Shown one piece after another: positions 26,918 to 36,599 of a stretch of DNA of 64,000 nucleotides. Positions within the stretch are counted from its first letter, which is position 1. Each line of letters opens with the position of its first letter. Where the stretch lies: the NCBI GenBank assembly GCA_963850905.1, contig CAWKMU010000003.1, forward strand, positions 1,184,001 to 1,248,000. Direction: 5' to 3'. The DNA comes from an uncultured Gemmatimonadales bacterium. Lineage in GTDB: Bacteria; Gemmatimonadota; Gemmatimonadetes; Gemmatimonadales; Gemmatimonadaceae. The notes beneath the pieces are model-generated. The model was given only the letters and a program-made list of their open reading frames with translations. It was not told the DNA's origin and ran no database searches. Both the position numbers and the translations under genes were made by a program.

Positions 26918-29398
26918 CTAATCCCTGCCGCCTAAAACCTGTAATTCCGCCATCGATGCTCGACGGGGTGCGGGCTCAGGCACGTTCGGTCCTTTAATCG
27001 TCCGCCACAGGATGTGGTTGAACAACGCCTCGTCCGCCCGATCGGCGTCGCTCAGGTCCAGCGACGCGGACTCGCGGGCTTCGGCGCCGGTCGCGGGGTT
27101 GCGCTCGTTGAGATCGATTTGCGGTGTCAGAGCAACGAACGGTTGCAGATCGGGCTTCGTCCCAAACGCATCGCGCAGCGGGCGGCCGAAATAGTCGTAC
27201 GGCGAGAGCGCGCTCAGCCCGAGGATCTCCTCGATCGTTGCCAGCACGTCGGTGGTATTGGCGAATCGATGGATCACTCCGCCGCGGCTGTACGCCGAGA
27301 CCGCGAGGAATGGCGACCGATGCGAGTCAACGTGGTCGGCGCCGTTCTGCGCATCGTCCTCGAGAACGAACACGACACTCGACGGCCAGAAAGGCGACTT
27401 TGACAGCGCCTCGATCATGCGGCCGAGGGCCAGATCGTTGTCGGCGACATAGGCGCGAGGGGTCCGAGCGCCGGCTTGCGCGCCGGCAGTGTGGTCGTTC
27501 CCCAAGTGCACGACCTCCAGCGCCGGCATCGATCCTTGCTGGCTGAACTGCTGCAATTCGGCGATCCACGCGTCGGCCCGACGCTGGTCCCGGACGTGCA
27601 GGTCGAACCCTGCAAACGCAGTGGCCGTGCGGGTCGCAAGCGCTGCCTTCGTCGGGATGGCGGGGGCTGGCAGCGTGTCGTTCACGGAACGGTTGCGCGG
27701 TTCGACGACGAACTCGCCATAGTCGCGCACCACGAGACCCTTTCGAATGGCCAGGTCCCAGATGTATCCCGCGGATGGTGCGGCGACGTCGTCGCCGTCG
27801 GGCGGTAGCGAATCGCGATTTGTCCCTTCGAAGTCATACGTGCGGCCGCGGCGCGAATACTGGGAGGGGACTGTCTTCTCGACGTAGTCCGTCGCGTAAG
27901 CGGCCGTCGACCAGTTGTGGCCATCGCCACTGACTTCCGCGTTCACGAAGAAGCGGTCCCAGAGTCCGAAGCGCTCCGCGAGTGCGTGATGGTTTGGCGA
28001 GACGGCTCGGGGGAAAAACACCAACGCGGTGTCCCCGTCTCCCCTGGGCATGTCACCAAAGACCTGGTCGTACGTCCGGTTCTCCTTGATGACGTAGACC
28101 ACGTGCTCGAAGGGCGGATACAACGACCGCGGGTTGGCCGGTGGCGCTGGGCCATCCCAGCCGTTGAGGTGCGCGACGCGTGCTGTGTACGATGCGAGCT
28201 CTGCGAGTGCCGAGGGTGGGATGACCGTCAGAGTACCGGCGATCTGGCCCAGGGTATAGCCCTGAGGATTCGTGGGCTGCCCCGGGCGCGGACCCAACTG
28301 GGCGTTCGGCCCTGTGCCGCGACCCTTCCCGTTGATGGCCAGAAGCGTATCGCCGCGAGTCGCGAGGACCGCCGAGGGGTACCACCCGACCGGGATGCGG
28401 CCGACCGGGACCGCACCGCCAGGAGGTGTGCGTCCACCCAGGCGGAACACGGCGATCGCGTTGTTGTCGGCCTCGGCTACGAACAGACGGTTGCCATCCG
28501 CCGACATTGCGAGCCCGTCCGGCGTGCTGCCCTCGCGCGTTGGTGATGCCGGCGCATCGCTCAGCCAGGCGATGACCGATCGTGCCCGGGTATCGATTAC
28601 GTCGATGCGATCCGTGCTCGCCGAGGCCACGAAAAGGCGACTCTGATCGGGCGAGAACACGAGCGCAGAGGGGTGACGCGAAACGCGAATCCGGCCAGCT
28701 CCAACGAGCGTGTCGCCGCTCCCGGGGCCAAACACGGAGACGGTGGTTCCACCCCACGCTGACACGTAGACCGTGCCGTCACGAGACACGGCGATTCCGT
28801 AGGGATATCGCTCCGTTGCGAGGCGTTGCACCACGCGCCCCGTGGCCAGATCCACCACGGCGAGTGCATCGCCCAGGTTTTCTGCGACGTAGAGCGTCCG
28901 CCCGCTAGGCGACAGCGCAATGCCGGCCGGGTACCGAGTGCCCGAACTGTGTGCCGGCTTCTCCGCGAGCACGACGCTATCGGCAAGGGCGGCGCGCCCC
29001 TCGCTCCATGTGTAGCGGTACACGACGTCCTGGTTCCCTCCGGATGCGTAGAACGCGCGGCCGTCGGGAGCGAAGACGAGTCCAATGAACGCCGCGGGCT
29101 GACTCAGCGTCTGCAGGACCGCGCCGCTCGAACGATCGATTACCTGTACCCCCTGCTCGCGCCATCCGTCGAGCAGCAGGACAACACGCGTGCTGTCGGG
29201 TGACAACACCGCCGCCAACGGGAAATTCCCGACGTCGTACGAACGCCCTGCGGGATCGAGCCGAACCCCGGTCGGAAGCCGACCGGGAGCGAGCGTCGCG
29301 GTCATCTGCTCGTCGCGCCCCGGTTGGCCGCCATGAGAGCACCCTCCCAGGAGGAGGACAGCGGCGACCAGCGGGACCGAAATTTCACCGAATCGCAT
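26918..29398 (-). CDS. Lipoprotein with a YncE/YVTN beta-propeller and a phosphoesterase (alkaline phosphatase superfamily) domain
   Basis: Lipobox LLLGGC; repeated P.G.A.S.DG..LYV blades; HVVYVIKENRTYDQVFGD, NDHT, DNDLALGR and EDDAQNGADHVDSHRS motifs. Confidence 0.9.
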   Translation of the reverse strand: MRFGEISVPLVAAVLLLGGCSHGGQPGRDEQMTATLAPGRLPTGVRLDPAGRSYDVGNFPLAAVLSPDSTRVVLLLDGWREQGVQVIDRSSGAVLQTLSQPAAFIGLVFAPDGRAFYASGGNQDVVYRYTWSEGRAALADSVVLAEKPAHSSGTRYPAGIALSPSGRTLYVAENLGDALAVVDLATGRVVQRLATERYPYGIAVSRDGTVYVSAWGGTTVSVFGPGSGDTLVGAGRIRVSRHPSALVFSPDQSRLFVASASTDRIDVIDTRARSVIAWLSDAPASPTREGSTPDGLAMSADGNRLFVAEADNNAIAVFRLGGRTPPGGAVPVGRIPVGWYPSAVLATRGDTLLAINGKGRGTGPNAQLGPRPGQPTNPQGYTLGQIAGTLTVIPPSALAELASYTARVAHLNGWDGPAPPANPRSLYPPFEHVVYVIKENRTYDQVFGDMPRGDGDTALVFFPRAVSPNHHALAERFGLWDRFFVNAEVSGDGHNWSTAAYATDYVEKTVPSQYSRRGRTYDFEGTNRDSLPPDGDDVAAPSAGYIWDLAIRKGLVVRDYGEFVVEPRNRSVNDTLPAPAIPTKAALATRTATAFAGFDLHVRDQRRADAWIAELQQFSQQGSMPALEVVHLGNDHTAGAQAGARTPRAYVADNDLALGRMIEALSKSPFWPSSVVFVLEDDAQNGADHVDSHRSPFLAVSAYSRGGVIHRFANTTDVLATIEEILGLSALSPYDYFGRPLRDAFGTKPDLQPFVALTPQIDLNERNPATGAEARESASLDLSDADRADEALFNHILWRTIKGPNVPEPAPRRASMAELQVLGGRD

Positions 29399-29436
29399 GG
29401 GACAGGGGGCAGAAGGGGGCCATGGCTCCCGGTGTG

Positions 29437-29462
29437 TGCAAGGCGGCGGCCGGCTGGCGTCT
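29437..29462 (+). promoter_or_regulatory. Possible ECF-type promoter upstream of the VIT-vWA/ECF operon
   Basis: TGCAAG-N15-CGTCT resembles the ECF '-35 AAC / -10 CGTC' pattern; imperfect match. Confidence 0.25.
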
Positions 29463-29535
29463 CCCCAACGTAAGCAATGCGGCGGGGCCGTGGAGTCTTG
29501 TACGGCCATCTGCCGTCAACGCCAGGAGAAACGAT

Positions 29536-32007
29536 ATGCGTCCGCCTCGTGTCCGGCTAATCAGCGCTGTCATTTGTTGCACGGTCGTTGCCGCCGCGCC
29601 GCGCGCGGCGAGGTCGCAGGGGATGGTCGTGGTCCGACCCCCTGTCTGCCAACCGGCGCCGTGTACACAGAACGTTCCCTGCGTCATGCCTCGGTGCGTC
29701 CTGCCAATCCGGCCCGAGGTGGTCCGGAGCTCGAGTCACGTCCGCGCCGAGCTCGTCGACCACGTGCTGCGATACGAGGTCACCGAGACATTCGTCAATC
29801 GGGGCGTGCGCCTCGGCGAGGCCGACTATCTGTTTCCCCTGCCCGCGGGCGCAGCCTTCCAGGATCTCAAGCTGTCGATCAACGGCGAGCTCGTCGCCGG
29901 CGAGGTGCTCAATGCGCCACAAGCCCGGGGCATCTACGAAGAGATTGTGCGTCGCCAGCGAGACCCCGCGCTCGTGGAATGGATGGGGATGGGGCTGCTG
30001 CGCGCTCGGATTTTCCCTATCCAGGCTGGCGAAGAAAAGACCGTGGTCGTGCGATTCCAGACAGTCGCACGCCGCGAGGGTGACGCGCTCCGGATCGACT
30101 ACACGCGCCCGAGCTCGGGCTGTCAGCCGGGTCAAATGCCCTGCCAGCCCGTACTGCCGATCAGTGGGGGTATGGCGCGCTCAGGTGGCGGCTCAGACGA
30201 GCACGGCGGCGAGGACCGCAATGGGTTCACGCTCACCTACCGATCGTCGGATGGATTCGGTACACCCTATTCGCCGACCCACTCGCTCGCGACGGAGCGC
30301 GACGGCGACCTGCGCACCGTGCGCATCGAAGGTGATGCCTCGGACATCACGATTCTCCTTCCGATTCCGCACTCGACGGCGGCCGCGGTCAGCATGCTTC
30401 CCTTCGCACCGGGCGATGGTCCGGGCTTCGCGCTCATTACGGTTTCGCCGCCGGTCGTGCACGTAACTCCGACGCCACGCGACGTGACGTTTGTGCTCGA
30501 CGTCTCGGGCTCGATGTCGGGACGCAAGATCGAGCAGGCGCGTGCAGCAGGTCGCGATCTGCTCGCGACGTTGACGCCGCGAGACCGCTTCCGGCTCATC
30601 GACTTCTCGACGGACGTTCGTACCTTCCGCGACGAATACGAAACGGCCACGCCGGAACACGTTCGGGAGGCGGAGCAGTATCTCGATCAGCTCGAAGCGT
30701 ACGGATCTACCAACATCGAAGGCGCGTTGCGGCGCGCGCTCGAGCACCCGGTCGATGATCGTGAGCCTCATGAGTCCGATGGCGCGGAGCACCTGCCCAT
30801 CGTGTTGTTCATGACGGATGGAGAGCCGACGATCGGCGAGCAGTCACCGGACGCGTTGGTTGCGCAGGCATCGCGCGAGCTGGGTCACGCTCGACTGTTC
30901 ACCTTTGGCCTCGGCGCCGACGTGAACACTTCGTTGCTCGAGCAACTGGCGCTGCAAGGGCGTGGCACTGCGCAGTTCGTGCGACCGGACGAGTCGGTGG
31001 AGCGCGCCGTCTCCATCGTGGCTCACCGGTTGGCCGATCCGGTGATCACCGACGTGGCACTCCACGCCGACGGCGTGCGTCTCACGGAAATGCTTCCGGA
31101 GGAGATGGTTGATCTGTTCGCCGGCCAGGACCTGGTGTTGCTGGCGCGGTATCAGGGCAGTGGCCCGGCACATTTGCGATTCACGGGTCGCACGGCGACG
31201 GGTCCGATCAGCTGGACGTCGGACGTGACGTTCCCCGATCGCGAGCGTGCCAATCCGTTCGTCGCGCGGCTCTGGGCGACTCAGCGGATCGGATTTCTCG
31301 AGGCCGCCCGCCATAAGTCTGGTGCGTCTCCGGAGATCGATGCGGAGCTGCGGTCACTCGGTGAGCGATTCGGGATTCCGACCGAGCTCACGTCGTACCT
31401 CGTCCGCGAGCCCGCCGTGGCCATGACGCCGCAGCCGATGGACGGTACGAGCCGGTTTCGGCAGGACGCGGCGGGCGCGGTTCCACTGGCGGCTCCCGCT
31501 CCGACGATCGAGAACGCCTTGCAAGACCACAAGGGAGATGGGCTCCGGTTAGAGACACAGGTCGTCACCGGCACCGCCACAACCGTGTCGAGCGCAAACG
31601 GAGCGAGTGTAAATGGCTCGCCGACCGCGGCGTTTGCCAGGGCGAAGGCTGCCGCTGCCGAGCGTGCGGCGACGACGCTTGCGGCCGCCGATTCGTCCGC
31701 GACGCTCGCCGTGGGAGCGGATGGGGCCCGACCCAGCGCACTCCAACACGCCGGCGACCGGACGTTCGTGCTGCAGGACAGCGTTTGGAAGGACACGCGG
31801 TATCACGACGGCATGCGGCTCGTGCGGGTCCAGGCCTTCTCGACGGCGTACTTTACGCTGTTGCAGGCCGTGCCGGACCTGCGGTCCGCGCTCGCGATCG
31901 GGGAGCGCGTGATGGTGGCGGGTCGCCAGGTGGCGGTGGAGGTCAGCCCGGTTGGGTTGACGCAGCTGTCGGACTCGGACGTGGCTGCTGTCCAGGCCGC
32001 ATGGTGA
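29536..32007 (+). CDS. Secreted VIT (vault inter-alpha-trypsin) plus vWA domain protein
   Basis: AGGAG RBS; signal peptide; VIT motifs (EADYLFPLP, ARGIYEEIVRRQRDPALVE); MIDAS DVSGSM…T…TDG; RLWATQRIG…TELTSYLV. Confidence 0.9.
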   Translation: MRPPRVRLISAVICCTVVAAAPRAARSQGMVVVRPPVCQPAPCTQNVPCVMPRCVLPIRPEVVRSSSHVRAELVDHVLRYEVTETFVNRGVRLGEADYLFPLPAGAAFQDLKLSINGELVAGEVLNAPQARGIYEEIVRRQRDPALVEWMGMGLLRARIFPIQAGEEKTVVVRFQTVARREGDALRIDYTRPSSGCQPGQMPCQPVLPISGGMARSGGGSDEHGGEDRNGFTLTYRSSDGFGTPYSPTHSLATERDGDLRTVRIEGDASDITILLPIPHSTAAAVSMLPFAPGDGPGFALITVSPPVVHVTPTPRDVTFVLDVSGSMSGRKIEQARAAGRDLLATLTPRDRFRLIDFSTDVRTFRDEYETATPEHVREAEQYLDQLEAYGSTNIEGALRRALEHPVDDREPHESDGAEHLPIVLFMTDGEPTIGEQSPDALVAQASRELGHARLFTFGLGADVNTSLLEQLALQGRGTAQFVRPDESVERAVSIVAHRLADPVITDVALHADGVRLTEMLPEEMVDLFAGQDLVLLARYQGSGPAHLRFTGRTATGPISWTSDVTFPDRERANPFVARLWATQRIGFLEAARHKSGASPEIDAELRSLGERFGIPTELTSYLVREPAVAMTPQPMDGTSRFRQDAAGAVPLAAPAPTIENALQDHKGDGLRLETQVVTGTATTVSSANGASVNGSPTAAFARAKAAAAERAATTLAAADSSATLAVGADGARPSALQHAGDRTFVLQDSVWKDTRYHDGMRLVRVQAFSTAYFTLLQAVPDLRSALAIGERVMVAGRQVAVEVSPVGLTQLSDSDVAAVQAAW

Positions 32008-32016
32008 GTTCGTCGC

Positions 32017-32547
32017 ATGGGTGACATCGAGCGGTTGTTTCACACGTACCATGCACCACTCGTGCGTTACCTGACGCGCCGGCTGGGCGACGCCGACTGG
32101 GCAGAGGAGGTCGCGCAGGAGACGTTCCTGCGCGCCCTCCGGCAGGAGACGATCGTGAATGAGCGAGCCTGGTTGTTCGCGGTTGCGACGAACCTCGTGC
32201 GCGACGAAGCACGCAAAGACGCTCGTCGTCGACGGCACCTGGCCTTATTGGCCGAACAGGAGCGAGAGTCGGCGAGCGAGCCCGAGGTCACGACGTTGGA
32301 GCGAGCGCAGGAAGCGGCGCTCGCTCGGCGGGCGGTCGATTCGCTGGCGGAACGCGATCGGTTGGCGCTCTTGATGCGCGAGGAAGGGTTGGACTATCAC
32401 GAGATCGCCGAGGCGCTCGGCCTCTCCGTGGGGTCGGTCGGTACGACGCTCGCACGTGCGCGGCGTCGACTGGCCGATACGTACGACGCGTTGCAGCGAG
32501 AGGCAGACGCGCGCCACGCGCGTCGAGGTGGTTATGCTGGAGCATGA
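32017..32547 (+). CDS. ECF-family sigma-70 factor
   Basis: AEEVAQETF, WLFAVATNL and GLDYHEIAEALGLSVGSVGTTLARAR motifs. Confidence 0.95.
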   Translation: MGDIERLFHTYHAPLVRYLTRRLGDADWAEEVAQETFLRALRQETIVNERAWLFAVATNLVRDEARKDARRRRHLALLAEQERESASEPEVTTLERAQEAALARRAVDSLAERDRLALLMREEGLDYHEIAEALGLSVGSVGTTLARARRRLADTYDALQREADARHARRGGYAGA

Positions 32548-33884
32548 GGGAAATTCCGTGAACGGACACGCGAATGAGGCGGGCGCGCGCCACATCGACG
32601 AGGGCACGGTACACGCCTGGCTCGACGGACAGCTCTCTGCCGATGAGGCTGCGCGCGTCGAGCGGCATGTTGCGGCATGTGGCGCGTGCTCGGCGCTGGT
32701 CGCGGAGGCCCGCGGGCACGTCGCGGCGGCAACGCGCATCCTCAACTCGCTCGAATGGAGTGCCGACGCGGGTGGTCCCGCAAGCGCACCGGTGGTCGCA
32801 CCAGTGGCAGCTGCGCATCGCGGCTGCGATCGTGGTGATGGCCATGGGTACCGCGGTGTTCCTGCGAGGGTCGCATAGTCCGTCGAGTGCGGCACATGAC
32901 GAGCGTCCACTGGATCGAGTGGCGGGACCCGCGGTCCAATCGGCGCCCAGCGCCAGTATCGTGGCTCCGCAGCCCGAACTGTCGGAACGCGCCCTCAAGC
33001 CGGAGAAGAAGTCCAGCGCAACGCGTCCCCGGCAGAGTGTTCGTGAGGCTGAGACCGACGCCGTGCGCAGCGACAGCACGCGCATACCGCCCATGGCACC
33101 GTCCCCACTCGCCAACGGGGCTCGCGCCAGGGAGCTCGTCCCACCGGTGCCTGCCTCGGGTGTCGACACGAGTGGAGTGCCTGCGGTTGCGACCGCGCCC
33201 ACCATCGAGAACTCGTTGCAGGCGCAGGCCCCACTCGCGGCGCGTGCCGTCGCAGCTCGCCGCGTCACGGGTCGAGTGGTGGACGGGGAACAGCGCGCCC
33301 CGGTGGCAGCCGCAGAGGTGGTGATCCCCGGCACCATCATCGGCCAAAGCACGACCGACAGCGGCACGTTCAACATCACAGTGCCCGCCGACGCCAAGTC
33401 TCTCATGGTGCGCCGGATCGGCTATCTGGCCGAGAACGTGCCGCTCACTCCTGGAACGACCGATTACACCATTCCACTCAAGAGGGACGTGCTCCGACTG
33501 GAGTCACAGGTAGTGACTGGCGCGGCCAGCACCATCGGTACTCAGAACGCCGCGACTGCGGCGAAGGTGATGGCCGCGCCACAGAACGCCGGCGAGTCTG
33601 GTGGTGGTCTTCGGATCGCGCTCGCGGGCTCACAATGTCAAGGTCGGGTCGTGCGCGTGGCGACGGGCGCCGAGGGATTGGGACTCGGCGACTCGACCGA
33701 AGCACGGTTGACGTCGACGCCGAGCCAGAGTCTCGATCAAACGGGCTTTGACGTTCGACTCGTTCCCGATACGGCCTCCGCACCCGCCGGCAGTTGGCAG
33801 CCGATCGGACGCGATTCTGCCCTCGTCAAGCTTCAAGGGCCACGTGCCGCCACGCAGACGCGGGTGGCGTGCGGCGGCGATTAA
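32534..33884 (+). CDS. Zinc anti-sigma factor (zf-HC2) with TM helix and periplasmic carboxypeptidase-regulatory-like domain; apparent +1 frameshift near 32755
   Basis: GAGGTGG RBS; HAWLDG…HVAACGAC (HxxxCxxC). After the shift: LRIAAAIVVMAMG TM, then VTGRVVD…GQSTTDSGTF…LMVRRIGY. Confidence 0.85.
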
Positions 33885-33918: not shown

Positions 33919-34002
33919 GCGACGCATGCGTCGCCCCTACCCGCCGGTTCACGAGGGTTGTGCGGGCGGTAAAGCGAGGGCGACGCACGGCGTCGCCCCT
34001 AC
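33919..34002 (-). repeat. Tandem REP pair (family 2, GTAGGGGCGACGC…GCGTCGC) between convergent genes
   Basis: Copies at 33919-33940 and 33978-34002, each preceded by tgcgggcggt (period about 60 bp). Confidence 0.8.
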
Positions 34003-35871
34003 CTTGTGGGTTGGAAGTAGGAGGCGTCGGTCTGTTCGAAGCGGGCGCCGAGCCAATGCACCGCGACATAGATCTCCGTGGCGCCGACGGCCAGGCCGGA
34101 GAAAATCGCGGCCAGGAGCGTAGCGGGAGATGGCATCCCGTCGCTCGACAATCCGACCAGTATCCCCGCGACCGTGACCGTCGGCAGAGCGAGCACCGCG
34201 GTCAGCGCGATCAGGCTCGCGCCGAAGCCGAGGAGGCGCTGGCCGATGACCTCCAGTCCGCCCATGCTGCTCGCGCCAATGCGAGCCCACTCGGGGAATA
34301 GCAGCGCCGCCGCATTCTGGATCAGAAAGCTGGCGCCGTTGATCAGCGGCAGGACGGCAATCGCGACCGCGAACATTGCGAGGTTGCTGGGGAAGGATAT
34401 CGGGAACAGCGATAGTGGACCGCCCCCTTCGTCGATTGGCGTGCTTGCCAGGAAGATGTAGCTCGCCGCGAGCAACGCCCATTGGACCAGCGTGAGCGCA
34501 AGTGTCGACAATGCGATCTCGGCAAATACGAGGACGGGCCCACGCAGCGGGTACGTCCGCAGCATGTCAATGTAGAGGAGATCCTGCCGCAGGTCGTTCC
34601 GCACGGCAAGCGGGCCCAGGACGATCAGAAACATCGCGGCGACGAACGCCAGAGTTCCCAGGAGAACCGCGCCACCCGAGGCCGGACTGCCCGGAAGCAG
34701 ACCGATCTCGCGGGTCGCCATCACGAACGCCGCCAAGCAGAACGATACCCAGAGGCCGGTGCGCAGTCGCACGCCGCGAATGAGCGCGACCGTGTTCTTC
34801 CACAAAAGCGCGACCGCGGGGTCGCCGATCGGCGCGAGCGGGAACAGAGCCCGCCGGGGGCGGGGGACGATCGCCGGAGCCCGGTCGAAGCGCACCGCTG
34901 CCATCGAGCCGCTGATCTTGTCGACCATGCGCGGTGTGGGGAGGGCCGCGCCGGCCCTCCGAGCTCAATGTGCCGCGAGCTGTTCGGCACGGCGCGCCGA
35001 CGCTTCGACCGCCGCATCCTCGAACACGGCATCCGCGCGCACCACCCACAGGATGTGCACGACGAGTAAGGCGACCGCGGGCCCGATGGCCACGAGCCAG
35101 GCGGGGGACGTTTCGGCGTACGACGGCGCGACCGCGACCCGGAACGGCGCGAGCACCTCGTACGGAAGGGGACTGCGGAATGCCATCCAGACCTGCGTGA
35201 GCGCGCGGGGCACCTCGTCGATCGCACGGACACCTGGCCACGCACGCACGGCCGTAAATAGCAGCACCAACAGGCCGGCGACGACGATGAGGACCGGGAT
35301 CGCGTTGCGCCGGAGACCGCGCCCTCGCTCCGCCGCACCGGCGCGCACCAAGGCCGCAGCCATCTGGTGTAGTGACATCGTACAAAAGAGCACCCAGAGC
35401 GAGACGACCCGTAGTGCGGGTGTGAGCTGCGACCCAGCCCGGCGAGCGAGCACCGTGATCAGCACTGCGCTGATCGAGCAGTCCGACTTGCGAGCGCGCA
35501 ATCTTGTACAGCACGAGCGTGCGCCGCCGGATCGGCGCGGGGAAGAGCAACTGAACCTCGGCTGGCGTGAATGCCAGTGCGGTGTTGGTGCTACCGAGCA
35601 ACCACCATTTGGCCGTGATCAGCGCGATTGCGCAGGTGCTCAGCAGCTGAATGCCTCCTCCGACTGCGTCGCCCGAATGACTCGGGCCCAGTGGATTGGG
35701 GACATCGACCGTTGAGCCGCCAGGACGATGCAGCAGGAGCAGCAGGTACGCGCATCCAACCGCAACGGCCAGGACGTACCGGGGAGACCTGAGCCGTCGC
35801 AGCTGCGACGCGGCCCGGTTGTGCAGGGTGCGCGCGCTAAGGTAAGCGAACGCTGAAAGGGTACCACTCAC
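33999..35871 (-). CDS. Putative ABC exporter permease, interrupted by a +1 shift near 35475 and an in-frame TGA at 34965-34967
   Basis: RRLRSPRY, LAFTPAEVQLLFPAP, FEDAAVEAS, LLWKN, RNDLRQDL and QNAAALLFPEW motifs; GTGA/ATGA overlap with the ATPase gene. Confidence 0.8.
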
Positions 35872-36599
35872 GCGGCCGGCGCGTCTCCCGTCAAAGCCAG
35901 GAAGACGTCCTCCAATCCGCGACCGGCGAGCTCAGGGCGTTCAGCCATGACGTTGGCCATCGTGCCGTACGCGACGCGACGCCCCCGCTGGAGCACCAGG
36001 ATGTGTGTGCAGAGCTCCTCGACGAGGTGCAGCAGATGGGAGCTGAGCACGACCGCAGCGCCGGTCCGTGCTCGGTGCGCGATGGTCGCTTTCATTTTGC
36101 GAATGCCCGCGGGATCGAGCCCAGTCAGTGGTTCGTCCAGGATGAGCACCGACGGTGAGTGGAGCAATCCGCATGCGATCGCCAGTTTCTGCCGCATCCC
36201 GCGCGATAATTCCGCCGGAAGCGCATGCCGCTTGTCGAGTAGCTCGAGCTCGGCCAGCAGCGGGCCGACGCGATCGGCTGCATCCGCGACGTTATACAAA
36301 CGAGCGATGAATCGCAGGTGTTCGTCCACGCTCAAGTACTCGAACAGCTGTGGCTCGTCGGGGATGAAGGCCAGGGCCGCCTTGGCTCGCCGCGGATCGA
36401 TCGCGAGGTTCGCACCGGCGACCTGTATTGTCCCGCGCGTCGGAATGGCGATGCCACAGAGGCTGCGCAGGGTGGTGGTCTTGCCGGCGCCATTGGGCCC
36501 GATGAGCCCCATGACGTCGCCGGGGGCCACGGAAAACGACAGGTCGTCGACCGCGACGACGTCGCCAAACAGCTTGGTCAGTCCCGAAACCTCGATCAC
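35868..36599 (-). CDS. ABC transporter ATP-binding protein
   Basis: Walker A GPNGAGKTT, signature LSRGMRQK, Walker B LILDEP, and SSH motif. Confidence 0.96.
   Translation of the reverse strand: MIEVSGLTKLFGDVVAVDDLSFSVAPGDVMGLIGPNGAGKTTTLRSLCGIAIPTRGTIQVAGANLAIDPRRAKAALAFIPDEPQLFEYLSVDEHLRFIARLYNVADAADRVGPLLAELELLDKRHALPAELSRGMRQKLAIACGLLHSPSVLILDEPLTGLDPAGIRKMKATIAHRARTGAAVVLSSHLLHLVEELCTHILVLQRGRRVAYGTMANVMAERPELAGRGLEDVFLALTGDAPAA

Follow-up and report, generated by a model that had tools for sequence, protein, structure and literature searches.

Why does an anti-sigma factor carry N-terminal parts of a TonB-dependent transporter? We asked this question of one operon of an uncultured Gemmatimonadales bacterium (genome G000), located in a 64-kb stretch of contig C3, which we refer to as the window. 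The operon encodes a VIT-von Willebrand factor A (vWA) protein, an extracytoplasmic function (ECF) sigma factor and a zf-HC2 anti-sigma factor. We observed that the operon is conserved, that the anti-sigma bears motifs which originated in transporters of the SusC family, and that these segments are selectively retained. The interpretation that we favour, with a probability of about 0.5, is that of a conserved three-gene ECF module, likely autoregulated and likely concerned with envelope stress, in which the captured TonB boxes would act as accessory docking handles for TonB's C-terminal domain.

The operon and the captured parts of its anti-sigma

The three genes were found where a preliminary description of this sequence, which had recognised a tight operon, had placed them.

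29536..32007, forward strand: VIT-vWA gene P0001 (823 residues, ITIH heavy-chain-like, with an N-terminal signal peptide judged by eye from the sequence)
32017..32547, forward strand: ECF sigma gene P0004 (176 residues, Sigma70_r2/r4_2 by Pfam/NCBIfam)
32534..33884, forward strand: gene of the zf-HC2 single-pass anti-sigma (about 449 residues if read through an assembly frameshift near 32754)

The start of the anti-sigma gene at 32534 overlaps the stop of the sigma gene. In Pfam searches the VIT domain took up residues 66-173 of P0001 and the VWA domain residues 316-482. A conservation survey, which the preliminary description had proposed, was performed on loci selected by vWA or sigma similarity, and the complete operon was present at 109 of 114 distinct Gemmatimonadota loci, missing genes being mostly a matter of contig ends. 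P0001 was matched in 49 of 61 genomes; the relatives of the window are Gemmatimonadota, chiefly Gemmatimonadaceae. No beta-barrel receptor had been noticed in the window, and none of the 38 Plug matches of the genome falls inside it.

In the assembly, the zf-HC2 domain is encoded in one frame, and the transmembrane helix and periplasmic part in the next. It had been considered that a real frameshift at 32755 might separate these domains. We regard it as very likely an assembly indel, because a single intact open reading frame (ORF) encodes the ortholog in G004 (451 aa) and in G002 (502 aa), no fewer than 5 of the 18 SusC genes of this assembly are broken as well, and one independent 151-base contig (depth 2) lacks one base at 32754.

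Read through in this way, the anti-sigma has the following parts.

32609..32689, forward strand: zf-HC2 domain of the zinc-binding anti-sigma (ZAS) type with HxxxCxxC (PF13490, E 1.5e-9; zf-HC2 26-52)
32811..32864, forward strand: transmembrane helix, from hydrophobicity
33195..33221, forward strand: plug-start-like motif APTIENSLQ, 5' of the next domain (21/21 residues identical to G004 at dS 0.19)
33264..33515, forward strand: CarboxypepD_reg-like domain (NTE; PF13715, CarbopepD_reg_2, E 8e-11), by the tree captured from the SusC family of the lineage
33477..33554, forward strand: TonB-box segment LKRDVLRLESQVVTGAASTIGTQNAA, with the core LESQVVTG at 33498-33521
33627..33881, forward strand: small Cys-bracketed C-terminal periplasmic domain, kept within the genus

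The ZAS features are present, namely HxxxCxxC, the transmembrane helix and an adjoining ECF gene, and residues H45, C49 and C52 are conserved in at least 90% of the anti-sigmas. The periplasmic part matched positions 2-98 of the SusC/RagA model TIGR04056 (E 7e-10), and the box, homologous to transporter boxes, sits directly after the NTE. The carboxypeptidase-regulatory-like domain, the TonB box and the APTIENSLQ motif upstream had all been described before, and our coordinates agree. In the SusC proteins of the genome the APTIEN motif comes after the box, at the plug start, whereas in the anti-sigma it comes before the NTE, in permuted order.

Alignment to the genome's own SusC N-termini, a check suggested earlier, showed that NTE and box of the anti-sigma are 55-60% identical to the nearest of them. 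In a quick tree (43 rows, 109 columns; quick trees were also used elsewhere), the NTE and box of the window grouped with those of the G004 and G001 anti-sigmas (support 99), and this clade was nested in one of 20 rows (support 96) that includes 14 G000 SusC proteins. A single origin for 10 tested anti-sigma segments was rejected (approximately unbiased test, p-AU 0.038, 109 columns). The rejection and the nesting among the genome's own SusC proteins therefore point to capture or replacement of SusC N-termini more than once, from local donors.

In the comparison of G000 with G004, the NTE had an omega of 0.18, the box segment 0.16, the APTIEN segment 0 and the adjacent linker (tether) 1.07; over the comparisons with G001, G004 and G002 the NTE values were 0.12-0.30. 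The captured segments of the anti-sigma are under purifying selection in this lineage. A single-sequence AlphaFold2 (AF2) model of the intact G004 anti-sigma had a confidence (pLDDT) of 41.6, and its periplasmic part was not usable. The C-terminal domain (33627..33881) gave no Pfam or Atlas match; in alignment A1 this domain is of at least two unrelated-looking types (Cys-bracketed; beta-sheet plus helix), while sigma and vWA are conserved.

The vWA protein, a predicted regulon and the spread of the box

The same kinds of motif were found in a linker of the vWA protein, in addition to those of the anti-sigma; the preliminary description had not reported them.

30481..30981, forward strand: vWA domain with MIDAS residues D322-S324-S326, T392 and D428 (5/5 invariant in 83/83 aligned orthologs)
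31420..31614, forward strand: disordered linker, residues 629-693 (pLDDT below 50), aligning at the protease-susceptible region of ITIH4
31492..31524, forward strand: plug-start-like motif APAPTIENALQ in the linker (10/10 residues as in three SusC genes of the genome)
31543..31572, forward strand: TonB-box motif LRLETQVVTG in the linker, a sequence match to the SusC-type box
31735..32004, forward strand: conserved C-terminal domain of high pLDDT, outside any Pfam family

The linker motifs lie at residues 653-679 and have the same permuted order as in the anti-sigma. The alignment-based AF2 model of the protein (pLDDT 80.8) has residues 629-693 disordered. It resembles ITIH1 (6fpy: Z 23.9, root-mean-square deviation 3.9, 507 aligned), its Foldseek match to ITIH had E 2e-35, and the alignment to ITIH4 E 1.5e-39. 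VIT, vWA and hybrid fold are all present and the MIDAS is intact, so that this protein, a predicted transcriptional target, has by its model an ITIH-like fold. The protease-susceptible region of ITIH4 spans residues 633-713 (PMC7793589), and in the alignment the vWA linker starts where the ITIH4 chain enters this bait region. All relatives have this linker, box or no box, and in all it is hypervariable. Atlas matches of the C-terminal domain were unnamed clusters from Gemmatimonadota, Planctomycetota and Acidobacteriota. In one ortholog (L053, genome G010) the linker has an insert of about 100 residues that resembles a plug domain, with a box after it; no larger receptor capture was seen.

We then looked at the promoter of the operon and found a second gene with the same predicted element.

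29434..29464, forward strand: predicted ECF promoter GTGTGCAAG-N12-(GG)CGTCTCC, 71 bases 5' of the vWA start (26.8 bits)
G000:C3:1431285-1432583, reverse strand: DUF4349 gene (locus L241) with NTE and TonB box, behind the same predicted promoter

The motif gTGTGCAAGt-N12/13-naCGTCtCa was found upstream of the vWA gene at 91 of 94 distinct loci, and the matrix that scored site 29434 was built without that site. Only two sites of at least 21 bits were found in G000, as compared with 1 in the reversed-genome control: the window site and C3:1432591 (27.9 bits), which precedes the DUF4349 gene. The N-terminus encoded there has an NTE and LRLETQVVTG, and the two promoter-bearing units are 218 kb apart. 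Two further G000 sites (19.4 and 17.3 bits) were rejected, as they lie inside coding sequence and equal control levels. At the DUF4349 loci of relatives, 24 of 30 scored at least 15 bits vs 0 of 30 when reversed (G016, one of the misses, is included). The DUF4349 ortholog of G002 has NTE and box, that of G041 a box and an NTE remnant. The operon is thus likely autoregulated via the predicted promoter, and the predicted regulon comprises two units, the vWA operon and the DUF4349 gene.

A search of 52,047 six-frame ORFs of G000 for the SusC-dialect box motif returned 21, which were 18 SusC proteins and only the vWA protein, the anti-sigma and the DUF4349 protein besides; the dialect pattern was derived from G000 SusC boxes after the three proteins were already known. 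The claim that the anti-sigma carries a TonB box stands, but the box is not specific to the anti-sigma, as every extracytoplasmic protein of the predicted regulon, three in all, has it.

The relatives were scored, at a threshold of 12 bits, with a box matrix whose training set was 60 plug-adjacent segments of 10 other genomes. Removal of incomplete sequences, sequences below 280 aa and exact duplicates reduced the anti-sigmas from 118 to 97; the vWA ORFs were reduced from 114 to 100 (no anchor motif, or duplicate), broader vWA representatives from 150 to 124 (no anchor), and zf-HC2 paralogs from 60 to 39 (130 aa or shorter, and 8 own orthologs). The periplasmic part of the anti-sigma had a box in 29 of 97 cases, as against 1.17 expected from shuffles, and the vWA linker in 17 of 100 (0.15 expected), the background being 53 of 5,295 non-receptor ORFs of G000. 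At 9 bits or more, the anti-sigmas with a box numbered 44 of 97. Only 1 of 39 paralogous zf-HC2 proteins had a box, and that one belongs to this anti-sigma family. Kin are not independent and therefore these counts overstate the number of events. The expected conservation of the motif among orthologous anti-sigmas was borne out in part: it recurs far above chance and is absent in many.

The five positions that define the box showed 68% pairwise identity within a 36-member clade vs 16-26% in the flanks, with pS near saturation. The NTE was found in only 10 of 97 anti-sigmas and TonB_C in 0 of 97; therefore the recurrent element is the bare box. It was present in 11 of 18 SusC-rich and 0 of 18 SusC-poor genomes (SusC counts above about 11 are lower bounds). 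G000 has five TonB_C genes above the cut-off, one of which (G000:C3:2344509-2345300) is close to an exbD gene. One genome has a second copy of the same anti-sigma family (L322, G034:C141) with a strong box (16.1 bits).

Known systems and the neighbouring sequence

How does this operon relate to known systems? ECF255, a computation-only group of Bacteroidetes with a proposed TonB link (Casas-Pastor et al. 2021, PMC7826278), likewise has a vWA gene at -1, the ECF gene and a single-pass anti-sigma at +1, the order seen here at 109 of 114 loci, and a CarboxypepD_reg-like domain on the anti-sigma, as in the window and 10 of 97 orthologs. As the available text presents it (PMC7826278), the ECF255 anti-sigma has TonB_C, the receptor, whereas here we found the box, the ligand, with PF03544 in 0 of 97 at E 0.05. 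Its vWA protein is vWA-DUF3520-CPD and its promoter TATGGAT/GCATCT, in contrast to an ITIH-like VIT-vWA protein, GTGTGCAAG/CGTCTC (consensus at 91 of 94) and the phylum Gemmatimonadota (PMC7826278). No Pfam match to DUF3520 or CPD was obtained on P0001, and our own CPD profile matched 0 of 100 vWA ORFs.

FecA/FecR/FecI shares with the window an ECF sigma factor, an inner-membrane anti-sigma and a link to TonB (PMC11658791). FecIRA has a linked TonB-dependent receptor; here there was no Plug match in the window and no match to G000 SusC in the flanks of 120 loci. The Fec anti-sigma is FecR-type (PMC11658791), in contrast to zf-HC2 in 96 of 97 cases and no FecR among 18 families matched, and the Fec box is on the receptor, whereas here it is on the anti-sigma and predicted targets. 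Compared with ECF255 (TonB_C, DUF3520/CPD, promoter) and with FecIRA, the sequence features indicate a distinct form of vWA-ECF-anti-sigma module.

The SusC/RagA N-terminus, as in BT1763, has NTE (PF13715) and TonB box in the same order as the anti-sigma (PMC7782687), but the anti-sigma has no plug or barrel after the box, the plug-start motif is moved in front, and the anchor is in the inner membrane. The vWA protein resembles ITIH4, ITIH1 and SO2195 in having VIT, MIDAS vWA and hybrid fold followed by a disordered region (PMC7793589, PMC13712847). It differs from these proteins, as the available text describes them, in its C-terminal domain, in that no sortase-type C-terminal anchor was seen in it, and in its predicted ECF control; its TIGR03788 score of 240.8 is below the 551.65 cut-off. 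A plausible home for this sigma factor, by analogy, is ECF25 (including the Gemmatimonadetes subgroup ECF25s4), which has a single-pass zinc-binding anti-sigma at +1 and a DUF4349 association, and whose studied member SigG has a role in cell-wall stress (PMC7826278). ECF25 as described in the available part of that source has neither a vWA partner nor a TonB box, unlike the window. Neither an anti-sigma with a TonB box nor this regulon was described in the literature that we searched, which did not include subscription papers.

Some further observations were made around the operon and at its relatives. Divergent from it, a gene for a beta-propeller and phosphoesterase protein (26918-29509, reverse strand) probably starts further downstream than its longest ORF, because the start of that ORF overlaps the predicted promoter. 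Directly 3' of the anti-sigma stop (33919-34003) there are two copies of a short palindrome (GCGACGCATGCGTCGCCCCTAC-like), which we take to resemble a repetitive extragenic palindromic element; many unrelated contigs matched only at this place. Next (33999-36599, reverse strand) come an ABC ATPase and a membrane protein split across several frames, probably by further assembly indels, two scanned parts of which had no Pfam match. At L064 (G051), 3634 and 4751, zf-HC2 genes stand as a tandem pair 3' of the sigma gene. One contig with this operon (L153) is filed under an archaeal genome and is likely mis-binned, because its operon nests among Gemmatimonadaceae.

Possible role of the box

What could the boxes do? 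In the ZAS class of anti-sigmas the sigma factor is held at the membrane and is freed by cleavage of the periplasmic part. By the biology of this class, periplasmic cleavage would free the sigma factor here, which would then induce the ITIH-like vWA protein and the DUF4349 protein. The boxes would be permanently exposed in flexible tethers, unlike the transporter box, and therefore idle TonB would bind them by beta-strand addition. Its occupancy would fall once transporters engage TonB or the motor fails, and it would set the exposure of the anti-sigma tether to cleavage; the boxes would also bring the induced effectors together at TonB-ExbBD motors. Force-driven unfolding of the anti-sigma is less likely, because TonB and the anti-sigma share one membrane. 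In BT1763, the DEVVVTG that follows an NTE has been functionally proven to be a TonB box (PMC7782687), and TonB boxes function outside transporters in colicins (PMC11658791). Shewanella SO2195, of the TIGR03788 ITI family, is stress-induced and protects the envelope (PMC13712847), and another VIT-VWA protein increased radiation survival (bioRxiv 10.64898/2026.05.23.727404). A stronger version, in which the anti-sigma reads the free TonB motor and box-bearing effectors compete for TonB, closing a feedback loop in a receptor-free TonB-sensing regulon, is doubtful, though possible.

Several observations weigh against docking to TonB. The box of the vWA protein is under weaker constraint than that of the anti-sigma (pN/pS 0.44 vs 0.56-0.64 in the flanks). 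The boxes of the window itself score 11.1 and 10.6 bits, below the threshold, and rest on direct homology instead. Below 9 bits were 53 of 97 anti-sigmas, including a sister clade of the same genus (G005/G006/G008/G009), and the box was absent from 7 of 7 anti-sigmas of family f3. Among 124 broader vWA representatives, Verrucomicrobia and Armatimonadota included, no more than 2 reached 12 bits, and only 3 of 30 DUF4349 proteins (G000, G002, G041) had a box. With only 2-3 independent pairs, the link to SusC-richness did not reach significance, and donor supply would explain it just as well. No homolog of G000 TonB, ExbD or SusC (nor DUF4349) was found in the flanks of 120 loci. An NTE and a looser box-like strand are also found in other proteins of G000 that have no barrel. 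Three of these (G000:C3:1313712-1315529, C3:795114-796829, C4:442992-444713) have tandem NTE, a box-like strand and a short plug-like C-terminus, and appear to be a further receptor-like periplasmic family. The box is an accessory, dispensable part of the system, because many intact systems lack it.

Since the vWA protein is ITIH4-like, the tethers could instead be protease baits as in ITIH4, the SusC pieces imitating the N-termini of those outer-membrane proteins of which the cell has most. The anti-sigma would then be cut or bound, either by a protease or chaperone that deals with stalled SusC precursors or by a protease that attacks the cell; the sigma factor would be released and an ITIH-like trap induced, with no need for TonB. 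We consider this unlikely but far from negligible. The vWA protein matches ITIH1/ITIH4 across the VIT, vWA and hybrid domains with its MIDAS invariant in 83 of 83 orthologs, and its motif-bearing linker, disordered and at the position of the ITIH4 bait region (PMC7793589), is kept and hypervariable regardless of the box. Besides the box, plug-start and NTE parts were captured, and in G010 an insert resembling a plug; deletion of the NTE points to a function in biogenesis (PMC7782687), and the Shewanella envelope is protected by a protein of the TIGR03788 ITI family (PMC13712847). Most orthologs, however, keep the 8-residue box alone, and it is the positions of the transporter box that are conserved. 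No linked protease gene was identified in flanks that were not annotated for proteases, and protease trapping by a bacterial VIT-vWA protein was not found in the literature searched.

Improbable, in our estimate, is that the motif forms a beta-strand pairing inside the system, with the anti-sigma or vWA C-terminal domain or with DUF4349, linking the partners as box and TonB_C may do in ECF255. The boxes do co-occur (both proteins in 12 genomes, anti-sigma only in 13, vWA only in 2, neither in 60, kin not being independent), and in the 36-member clade the box stands at a fixed distance after a strand of the C-terminal domain. But neither the vWA protein nor any of the 97 anti-sigmas matched TonB_C, the AF2 model shows the vWA box undocked, and both partners have the ligand and neither a recognisable receptor. 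Functionless grafts, left by repeated recombination of a large SusC family into tolerant low-complexity linkers, would account for a patchy distribution of multiple origins, only in SusC-rich genomes and with varying order of pieces, but are the least probable of all given the purifying selection on the segments, the restriction of the dialect motif to three genes with the same predicted promoter and 218 kb apart, and the near absence of the box from paralogous anti-sigma tails.

In summary, sequence comparison gives good support to a TonB box that is regulon-wide and selectively retained but accessory. TonB boxes have so far been known on transporters and imported bacteriocins. If docking to TonB is true, a box on an inner-membrane regulator and on its whole predicted regulon would mean that cells could monitor the TonB system itself, which matters where dozens of receptors share few motors. 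The results also give a defined promoter and a two-unit predicted regulon for an uncharacterised ECF sigma factor of a soil phylum that has been little studied. They place DUF4349 in a regulatory context for the first time, and they connect bacterial ITIH-like proteins with envelope stress in a way that can be tested. A receptor-free TonB-sensing regulon, if true, would be the mirror image of ECF255, reinvented repeatedly by capture of SusC N-termini in transporter-rich Gemmatimonadota.

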